Counted from the first letter of the stretch, positions 451 to 575 are shown. The stretch: 64,000 bases of DNA from Acidobacteria bacterium SCN 69-37 (GCA_001724025.1 MEDJ01000009.1:306762-370761), one strand, 5' to 3'. Program-made: numbers and translations. The notes: generated by a model not told the origin, from the letters alone.

Positions 451-458
<8 letters not shown>

Positions 459-575
459 GGGAAGTTAGAAGTAAGAAGTAAGAAGTAAGAAGTAAGAAGT
501 TCGCAGTGCCCTGACGATACGGATGTAATTTCGAAGTTCGAGAACTTCTAACTTCTAACTTCTGACTTCCTATTC
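451..575. repeat. AT-rich heptad array hairpin (family A): 6x GAAGTWA facing 3x AACTTCT + GACTTCC
   Basis: In-register heptads at 461-502 and 543-570 have opposite polarity. They fill the gap between convergent stops at 458 and 548. Confidence 0.9.

Follow-up and report, generated by a model that had tools for sequence, protein, structure and literature searches.

Dispersed tandem arrays of heptanucleotides have been known in bacteria since about 1990, when repeats of the short tandemly repeated repetitive (STRR) type were first described. The name refers to heterocystous cyanobacteria, and the words of STRR1 to STRR3 are CCCCAGT, TTGGTCA and CAACAGT. Here we describe arrays of the heptanucleotide GAAGTNN, which occupy six loci inside a 64-kb stretch of DNA (MEDJ01000009.1:306762-370761; hereafter the window, by which we mean this whole stretch of 64,000 nt) from a soil genome of ~69% GC whose host belongs to the Vicinamibacterales (Acidobacteriota). 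The window sequence is found within a 167-kb soil-metagenome scaffold, and its RpoA matches at 88–91% identity carry the names Vicinamibacterales or Acidobacteriota; among the first 120 genome loci with the word, BLAST with the window as query returned no close relative. Like the STRR sequences of Calothrix and Nostoc, the arrays are dispersed tandem heptanucleotides, mostly intergenic and of no established function, and they lie at gene 3′ ends and inside operons, as an earlier reading of the bare sequence (hereafter the original prediction) had proposed. With a host among the Vicinamibacterales and a unit that differs from the STRR1 to STRR3 words, they are, however, STRR-like in behaviour and not STRR by name.

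STRR-type repeats were still called uncharacterised in 2015 (PMC4692102, PMC4679880). In most of the genomes surveyed, among them those of the GC-rich Burkholderia, Xanthomonas and Actinobacteria, heptanucleotide long simple sequence repeats (LSSRs) were reported to be the most frequent class (Mrazek, 2007, as cited in PMC4679880), and slippage was put forward as their origin (Mrazek, 2007, as cited in PMC4679880 and PMC4692102). In Xanthomonas, GGGAATC or (GGGANTN)n arrays are present in ~186 dispersed copies, 89–93% of them intergenic, with 70–75 convergent inverted pairs, a length that varies between species and an unknown function (Rehm et al., 2015, PMC4692102). They share essentially every anatomical feature of the window arrays, namely a host that is GC-rich and not a cyanobacterium, a 7-nt unit in which some positions are conserved and others vary, a purine strand with the open reading frame (ORF) close by on its 5′ side, and convergent inverted pairs. 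The Xanthomonas units are G-rich and contain G-tracts, whereas the window word is AT-rich and comes from another phylum. As no GGG run occurs in the window GAAGTNN units, against the four or more expected of repeats of the Xanthomonas type, G-quadruplex formation does not apply to them. At one Xanthomonas locus (L009), GGGAATC units grade in register into GGAAGTC units.

In Geobacter metallireducens, eight pairs of about five tandem MTYCTGA heptads on opposite strands, 70–115 nt apart, were described as "class 3 global regulator sites"; they are intergenic, for example between proB and proA, are absent from G. sulfurreducens, and were read by the authors as putative DNA sites for IHF/HU-like proteins (Aklujkar et al., 2009, PMC2700814). 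Their units ATTCTGA, CTCCTGA and CTTCTGA are the complements of GAATTCA, GGAGTCA and GAAGTCA, with the difference that GAAT, GGAG and GAAG cores are mixed. The TAACTGA direct repeats of marine Beggiatoaceae, Cyanobacteria and Bacteroidetes, for which a post-transcriptional role was proposed (MacGregor, 2015, PMC4679880), are likewise intergenic heptamers across distant phyla and strand-specific at ORF boundaries, including those of ribosomal protein operons. Their word is a different one, however; most of them are placed immediately before start codons, in forward orientation, and a single inverted set is reported. A resemblance in likely function only exists to the repetitive extragenic palindromes and bacterial interspersed mosaic elements (REP/BIME) of enterobacteria, which are dispersed and transcribed palindromes at gene 3′ ends or within operons, stabilise 3′ ends or act as weak terminators, and turn over from strain to strain. 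REPs are, however, conserved units of 20–40 nt that are mobilised by RAYT transposases and have no 7-nt tandem substructure.

The premise in the original prediction that no equivalent had been described for GC-rich non-cyanobacterial genomes is contradicted by the LSSR survey, as far as later papers cite it, and by the repeats of Xanthomonas and G. metallireducens; its premise of novelty fails because the anatomy of the window arrays matches that of the Xanthomonas, Geobacter and STRR heptads. The window arrays thus belong to an already described, functionally unexplained class, the bacterial heptanucleotide repeats, and they are most likely a lineage-specific family of simple sequence repeats of the same kind as STRR, the Xanthomonas (GGGANTN)n arrays and the Geobacter MTYCTGA pairs. 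In the window they comprise the following parts:

461–502, + strand: site 1 arm a, GAAGTTA, four times GAAGTAA and GAAGTTC, starting 2 nt after the TAG stop at 456–458
503–542, no strand: site 1 spacer or loop, whose right end opens a small palindrome (GAAGTTC-GA-GAACTTC, 533–548) reaching into arm b
543–570, − strand: site 1 arm b, three times AACTTCT and GACTTCC; on the − strand GGAAGTCA GAAGTTA GAAGTTA GAAGTT
38837–38870, + strand: site 2 purine arm, overlapping the stop (38841–38843) of a HEAT-repeat gene (37836–38843, + strand)
38879–38912, no strand: site 2 centre, TTCGAAG-type heptads, an inner hairpin
38914–38946, − strand: site 2 second arm, GAAGT on the − strand, overlapping the stop (38926–38928) of an FAD flavoprotein gene (38926–40491, − strand)
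48447–48471, no strand: site 3 palindrome, CCGAACTTCGAAGTTCAAAGTTCGG, adjoining a REP-like GC hairpin (48420–48439)
48488–48533, − strand: site 3 single arm, on the − strand CAGAAGTTCGAAG followed by (CCAGAAG)4, a variant with a GAAGC core (GAAGCCA)
49199–49243, − strand: site 4 single arm, five GAAGT units directly after the intrinsic terminator of pilin paralogue 1
62201–62228, − strand: site 5 single arm, GAGAAGA TAGAAGT TCGAAGT CAGAAGG, in the rpoA–rplQ spacer
63339–63470, no strand: site 6, a near-perfect palindrome of ~132–140 nt between rpsK and rpoA

The GAAGTNN heptad arrays are confirmed to be real in the window. TRF, which had been suggested at the outset for a genome-wide census, called them in the window at period 7 with 4–8.6 copies. 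The three-unit pattern GAAGTNNGAAGTNNGAAGT, with at most one mismatch, matches 23 times in the window and not once in 100 dinucleotide shuffles, and GAAGT follows GAAGT at +7 (n = 10) and +14 (n = 7) and at none of the other distances between 5 and 13; ACTTC likewise recurs at +7 (n = 13) and +14 (n = 9). By these TRF, shuffle and spacing counts the units stand head to tail beyond chance, as in heptad LSSRs and STRR-like repeats, and as in heptad LSSRs they are dispersed and mainly non-coding, with six loci in 64 kb that touch only spacers or the last codons and stops of genes. The word clusters have a GC content of 0.30–0.43, against 0.64–0.76 in 2-kb windows of the stretch, and are the sharply AT-rich islands that had been reported. 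An assembly artefact, a possibility considered from the beginning, is ruled out because other assemblies reproduce sites 1 and 6: three independent Logan assemblies carry site 1, each breaking within the perfect ACTTCTT run, and site 6 is identical in eight European Nucleotide Archive (ENA) assemblies from different samples.

In detail, the six in-register heptads expected at 461–502 are present, although as five GAAGTWA and one GAAGTTC in place of six GAAGTWA; the facing AACTTCT units and GACTTCC at 543–570 read as claimed, and the period-7 recurrences were recovered at 38837–38946, 48488–48533 (the GAAGCCA variant), 49199–49243, 62201–62228 and 63339–63470. That all copies are intergenic is nearly true, except that three arms overlap last codons or a stop. 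Two of these overlaps (38841–38843 and 38926–38928) belong to site 2, which as a whole (38837–38946) lies between the convergent HEAT-repeat and FAD flavoprotein genes. The third is at site 1, where both arms fill, as predicted, the gap between the convergent stops of a GGDEF gene (30–458, + strand, stop 456–458) and a gene of the dihydrodipicolinate synthase (DHDPS) family (548–1453, − strand, stop 548–550). The purine strand of arm a is the sense strand of the GGDEF gene, and the C-terminal end of the DHDPS-family protein, the seven residues RKSEVRS, is encoded by arm b together with the TAG stop (548–570). Since homologues measure 295–315 residues and most of them align over only 93–99% of the query, the array has altered the C-terminus of this protein.

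Sites 3 and 4 each follow one of two tandem type IV pilin paralogues. The site 3 arm, unstructured on its own, begins 4 nt past the stop of paralogue 2 (48538–49143, − strand), and paralogue 1 (49308–49856, − strand) has a canonical intrinsic terminator (49279–49252 plus a T-run). Sites 5 and 6 sit within the ribosomal-protein/RNA polymerase alpha operon with rpsK (63485–63904, − strand) and rpoA (62236–63210, − strand). Site 5 begins 7 nt after the rpoA stop and extends into the ribosome-binding region of rplQ. The two 32-nt arms of site 6 (63341–63372 and 63437–63468) are perfectly complementary, variable positions included; its centre, at which the strand reverses, is GAAGTTCGAACTTC with the self-complementary TTCGAA, and in the mRNA sense the palindrome is followed by GUUUUUAU.

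In all eight window arms that adjoin gene ends, GAAGT stands on the sense strand of the adjoining gene, and these arms lie at or within ~15 nt of the stop or, in the case of site 4, directly past the terminator. Their sense (purine) strand contains 66–79% A+G and 2–25% C (summed from base counts), and between convergent genes in the window the two arms follow in the order purine-then-pyrimidine. The same polarity is found across phyla. A search for four consecutive GAAGTNN units, in which hosts and counts refer to the matches listed, recovered at least 120 species from more than ten phyla, with Verrucomicrobiota, Bacteroidota, Acidobacteriota, Gemmatimonadota, Planctomycetota, Cyanobacteria (Nostoc, Okeania, Fortiea, Aulosira, Pleurocapsa and Crocosphaera), Latescibacterota, Myxococcota, Nitrospirota and Proteobacteria (Xanthomonas and Hyphomicrobium included) among the hosts. 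GAAGTNN arrays were also present in at least 120 viral contigs, and in some compact phage-like contigs hardly an intergenic junction is without one.

With genes called by our own crude caller based on ORFs and the GC content of third codon positions (GC3), the arrays at most 15 nt from a gene 3′ end in the genome loci were sense in 32 cases and antisense in 4 (p = 2e-6). Between co-directional genes the ratio of sense to antisense was 27:13 in genomes and 63:23 in viral contigs, or 90:36 for both pooled (p = 1.6e-6), and between convergent genes in the genome loci each arm adjoined the gene for which it is sense (10/10). Inverted pairs were purine-then-pyrimidine in nine cases and in the opposite order in one. 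The placement known from Xanthomonas, with the purine strand downstream on the coding strand and convergent pairs, is therefore reproduced in the window (8/8) and across phyla (32:4, 10:0, 90:36 and 9:1 for the pairs), and Rehm et al. found the same orientation preference in Xanthomonas with curated annotation (PMC4692102). As an example of the viral arrays, in the 27-kb contig IMGVR_UViG_3300001528_000579 (L144, L155, L176 and L210; 56–59% GC in two analysed loci) most intergenic junctions are occupied by arrays in which GAAGTCT alternates with GAAGTTA, more than 20 in all, mostly in sense orientation and often with CTTTT(T)AAAG between array blocks.

When the tandem-repeat periods of the listed genome loci, the syntenic loci of relatives and the window were pooled, period 7 accounted for 186 arrays, period 14 for 63 and period 21 for 37. 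Other words, among them TAACTGA, GGGAATT and TAGGGAG, make up 83 of the 186 period-7 arrays, and GAAGT units are mixed in the same arrays with GGAGT, GAGGT and GGGAAT units. Because period 7 dominates, many other words occur and units are mixed, the general feature is the 7-nt period together with a G/A/T-rich, C-poor strand and not GAAGT itself. Several readings of the word were discarded. A stop-codon backstop with stops in all three frames is not a general explanation, since in a tally of 746 units, drawn from more than 100 species, words with a stop make up 54%, where 50% would be expected, and the commonest word, GAAGTCA, contains none. The conserved part, GAAGT, is neither the UAG of HutP-like UAG-N4 periodic binding nor the GGA of CsrA or the ARN of Hfq sites, and it does not match the anti-Shine-Dalgarno complement.

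One could imagine that a multimeric or filament-forming RNA- or DNA-binding protein reads GAAGT every 7 nt. A conserved core with a variable 2-nt spacer is typical of a recognition motif, and both the fixed polarity relative to genes and the dense arrays of some phage-like contigs would fit such a periodic platform. Earlier authors voiced the same suspicion, the candidates being a global regulator such as IHF/HU for Geobacter (PMC2700814) and S1, Csp or CsrA for Beggiatoa (PMC4679880). From our point of view, this explanation is nevertheless doubtful: the same genomes contain many other heptad words and no universal motif, close relatives do without arrays altogether, 7 bp is out of phase with the DNA helix, and no candidate protein was found.

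In folding predictions, the almost perfect 140-nt hairpin of site 6 reached −86.3 kcal/mol (z = −13.4), and the facing arms of sites 1 and 2 reached −49.6 (z = −5.1) and −42.4 kcal/mol (z = −4.6), respectively, whereas single arms (0 to −5.6 kcal/mol) were no better than shuffles. As to features of intrinsic terminators, a stem is present at site 6, where GUUUUUAU comes after it, and at sites 1 and 2, where no U-tract does, and it is missing from the single arms; a terminator consensus scan of 48000–64000 lists near site 4 only the GC hairpin at 49279–49252 and no heptad arm. No sigma-70-like site lies inside the arrays in a scan of the same region, which disposes of a canonical promoter there. 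Nor was a known RNA family found, as Rfam 15 at gathering thresholds gave no match anywhere in the window and site 6 only sub-threshold matches to plant miRNA hairpins, a generic effect of long hairpins. Selection for a hairpin was rejected as the primary constraint, as in eight of nine pairs the NN positions of one arm complement those of the other no better than permutations do.

The comparison with relatives that had been called for revealed that the presence of the arrays varies and that site 1 differs by two units. In L129, whose DHDPS-family protein is 99% identical, arm a has four units in place of six and is exactly 14 nt shorter, a whole-unit difference in copy number as known from heptad LSSRs. 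At 83% identity (L130) the same position holds a degenerate array and a GAAGTTCGAACTTC palindrome, and at 75% (L131) there is a 3-nt spacer without array. In a lineage with 98% RpoA identity, the spacer of site 5 reads GATAGTTCGAAGGAC, which contains TTCGAAGGA, where the window has GATAGAAGTTCGAAGTCAGAAGGCAGGA, so that the site 5 array can be read as local growth from a sister-type seed overlapping the ribosome-binding region. This lineage also has 14 nt (CCGGTATTCATTCG) in place of the ~150-nt segment that bears the site 6 palindrome, which is absent from the lineages with 95–98% RpoA identity. Relatives with 91–97% RpoA identity have no array in the rpsK–rpoA–rplQ spacers and none in 21 kb of syntenic DNA each, and TRF called no period-7 array of at least three copies in relatives' syntenic loci. 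Conservation at orthologous positions is hence ruled out for sites 5 and 6, and site 1 is partly kept down to 83% protein identity. Three kinds of change between lineages can be seen in these alignments, namely a two-unit difference, possibly seeding in place, and the gain of a palindrome as a unit.

A difference in unit number brings to mind the TTTTGAT heptads in the ctxAB promoter of Vibrio cholerae, which are copy-number-tuned repeats. That the copy number of the GAAGTNN arrays serves phase variation or the tuning of a neighbouring gene could be argued from the six versus four units of site 1 and from the two arrays that follow type IV pilin paralogues. It is, however, very improbable, as the arrays are placed at 3′ ends or between housekeeping genes (rpsK, rpoA, rplQ and DHDPS) and not in the promoters or frames of surface genes, as sites 5 and 6 show no length variation across 8 to 10 samples, and as Rehm et al. 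were equally negative for Xanthomonas (PMC4692102).

The appearance of site 6 could also be due to a mobile palindromic mini-element, akin to miniature inverted-repeat transposable elements (MITEs) or REPs, in which an inverted-array module is inserted by a transposase or by recombination. The replacement of 14 nt by ~150 nt relative to the 98% sister and the perfect 32-nt arms speak for it, as does the 26-nt site 6 arm GAAGTCAGAAGTACGAAGTAAGAAGT, which recurs exactly on four soil-metagenome contigs representing three foreign loci (L268/L270, L269 and L271), each with its own inverted ACTTC partner and one of them after a stop codon; with so many arrays of this type among 241 million records, however, these three extra matches may be due to chance. 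No target-site duplication is visible by eye at site 6, where boundaries are uncertain and flanks variable, and no second copy of any module was seen in the 64-kb window and ~10 kb of additional flank. As the other modules moreover vary in their length, their spacer and the order of their units, as some arms stand alone, and as site 5 appears to have grown in place, we consider mobility of this kind improbable. One of the foreign GAAGTCAGAAGTACGAAGTAAGAAGT loci lies directly upstream of a gene whose product starts MKFEIITIFPDFF and which, by eye, we take to resemble trmD.

Another possibility is that the arrays are neutral by-products of replication, left by a polymerase that slips preferentially by 7 nt and accumulating where they are harmless, with an orientation bias that arises only from the purging of harmful insertions. 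Their rapid gain and loss and absence from close relatives, the many unrelated heptad words in the same genomes, the lack of enrichment of stop-containing words (~54% versus 50% expected) and the absence of co-variation between paired arms are all in agreement with this, and a slippage origin has already been proposed in the literature. It would, however, not predict the purine-then-pyrimidine order of the pairs (9:1) and sits uneasily with a single 5-nt core at six loci while NN varies, with the same core and the same polarity across phyla, with phage-like contigs that carry an array in almost every intergenic junction, and with a site 6 palindrome that is identical in eight samples. Taken alone, neutral slippage is possible, but we think it rather unlikely.

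The reading towards which we lean, with modest confidence, is a composite one, in which slippage generates the repeats, an orientation constraint at the RNA level filters them, and the inverted pairs are putative hairpins at transcript boundaries. Differences in unit number would arise by slipped-strand events, the rpoA–rplQ array may have grown in place from the sister-type seed, whereas inverted pairs and whole palindromes are seen to be gained as units at site 6, which is present in one lineage and absent from its 98% sister. The arrays persist in gene 3′ flanks and intercistronic spacers, with the purine strand, poor in C, as the sense strand of whichever gene ends just before them, an orientation rule that would reflect a constraint at the level of RNA or transcription. 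A sense single arm could act as an unstructured, G/A-rich, C-poor spacer that is a poor substrate for Rho and leaves the next start site accessible. In the antisense strand, ACUUCNN, C outnumbers G and a UC dimer returns at intervals of 7 nt. Rho utilisation sites are characterised by C > G and by YC dimers at YC-N9-13 spacing (PMC6144790), and in an ACUUCNN tract every second UC dimer falls within that spacing. By virtue of this resemblance, the antisense tract would be disfavoured inside transcription units, and it might be tolerated, or even useful, against incoming transcription. Facing arms would form a long hairpin that marks or insulates transcript boundaries, be it as a terminator or attenuator, as an RNase III target or, in a REP/BIME-like manner, as a protector of 3′ ends; among the arrays, the rpsK–rpoA hairpin with its U-run is, as modelled, the best candidate for an attenuator. 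All of these elements would be dispensable and turn over quickly. As regards the RNA-level role that had been suggested originally, a direction-linked effect is plausible in view of the oriented arrays and the stable paired hairpins. A terminator, a processing site and a binding platform would be candidate roles; the single arms are unstructured, and sites 1 and 2 lack a U-tract after the second arm.

Several observations weigh against this composite reading. Gene ends across taxa were called with a crude caller, and stop-containing arrays can inflate the closeness of sense arrays to stops, an artefact of which the co-directional counts are free. In the window and the other phyla, the complementarity of the NN positions of paired arms does not exceed the permutation expectation in eight of nine pairs, site 6 being the exception, so that hairpin pairing is not generally maintained, and most pairs lack a U-tract, with none after the second arm of sites 1 and 2. 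As sister lineages do without arrays, any function of theirs is dispensable. Site 4 may be little transcribed because it lies downstream of a strong intrinsic terminator, and slippage alone leaves the one 5-nt core at six loci with varying NN unexplained. Rho has six primary binding sites, of which arrays of 4–6 units would cover only two or three.

One could speculate further that purine-rich, C-poor heptads (GAAGTNN, GGGAATC, GGAGTNN and similar ones) form a single cross-phylum class of polar boundary elements of transcription units that is common to bacteria and phages. Outgoing transcripts would then read a Rho-refractory spacer and incoming ones would be stopped by Rho or by the hairpin of paired arms; alternatively, the 7-nt register might be read by a conserved multimeric RNA-binding factor. 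We regard this as a long shot.

Further repeats and neighbouring elements of the window are recorded here as observations of their own. The highest-scoring tandem repeat is a second heptad family, GTCGGTA/GCCGGTA in 13.6 copies (55728–55822), at the 5′ end of or upstream of a TraF-like gene (54538–55842, − strand) and just before a divergent Yip1 gene (55862, + strand). GC-rich short-period modules at 37643–37690 with 37775–37825, at 52677–52752 and at 60452–60517 follow directly after stops in purine-then-pyrimidine order (GGAGGCT, GGAAGG or CAGGCTG, then CCTCC-rich), with the architecture of the GAAGT pairs, and the one at 60452–60517, which separates convergent genes, forms a near-perfect palindrome. 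Five copies of a REP-like GC hairpin, CCTGGGGCT(GA/TC)AGCCCCAGG, are present in the window against 0 expected, two of them adjoining heptad or octad arrays:

7473–7492, 27587–27606, 48420–48439, 50289–50308 and 55687–55706: REP-like GC hairpin copies

Period-8 arrays (CGTAGCCT) interleaved with GC hairpins lie at 50170–50283, downstream of a type II/IV secretion F-like gene (50339–51535, − strand) and upstream of the pilin genes. Upstream of rpoA, a nearly invariant element of ~60 nt (63250–63318, − strand) consists of CCGGCCCGCAGCTYTCAGACCTGCGGCGKGAGGCCGG and, after it, TGCAGGTCTG, for which CAGACCTGC is an alternative pairing partner; the element is conserved in relatives with 91–98% RpoA identity (L125–L128 and L262), has no Rfam match, and may be an rpoA leader or attenuator. 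In the same region (63210–63485), rpsD, encoding ribosomal protein S4, is missing between rpsK and rpoA, as it is in the closest relatives (L125, L126 and L262), and it is present there in relatives with 91–92% RpoA identity (L127 and L128).

Overall, dispersed heptanucleotide arrays are among the commonest long repeats of bacteria and have no established function. On the practical side, short-read assemblies break at them, and predicted C-termini can be lengthened or cut short by them. The present case adds an acidobacterial host and a word, GAAGTNN, that is spread over many phyla and viral contigs. It further adds direct snapshots of change between lineages, in the form of a two-unit difference, a seed-like sister spacer and the gain of a palindrome, as well as a reproducible polarity with respect to transcription that any functional model will have to explain. 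This polarity of purine heptads across phyla and phages is, from our point of view, the part worth following. If the arrays were indeed a class of polar boundary elements or the target of a factor that reads their register, STRR-type repeats would be given a function. As polar insulators, they would represent a widespread and simple device for marking transcript boundaries; if that idea is false, they would provide a clean natural system for the study of 7-nt slippage.

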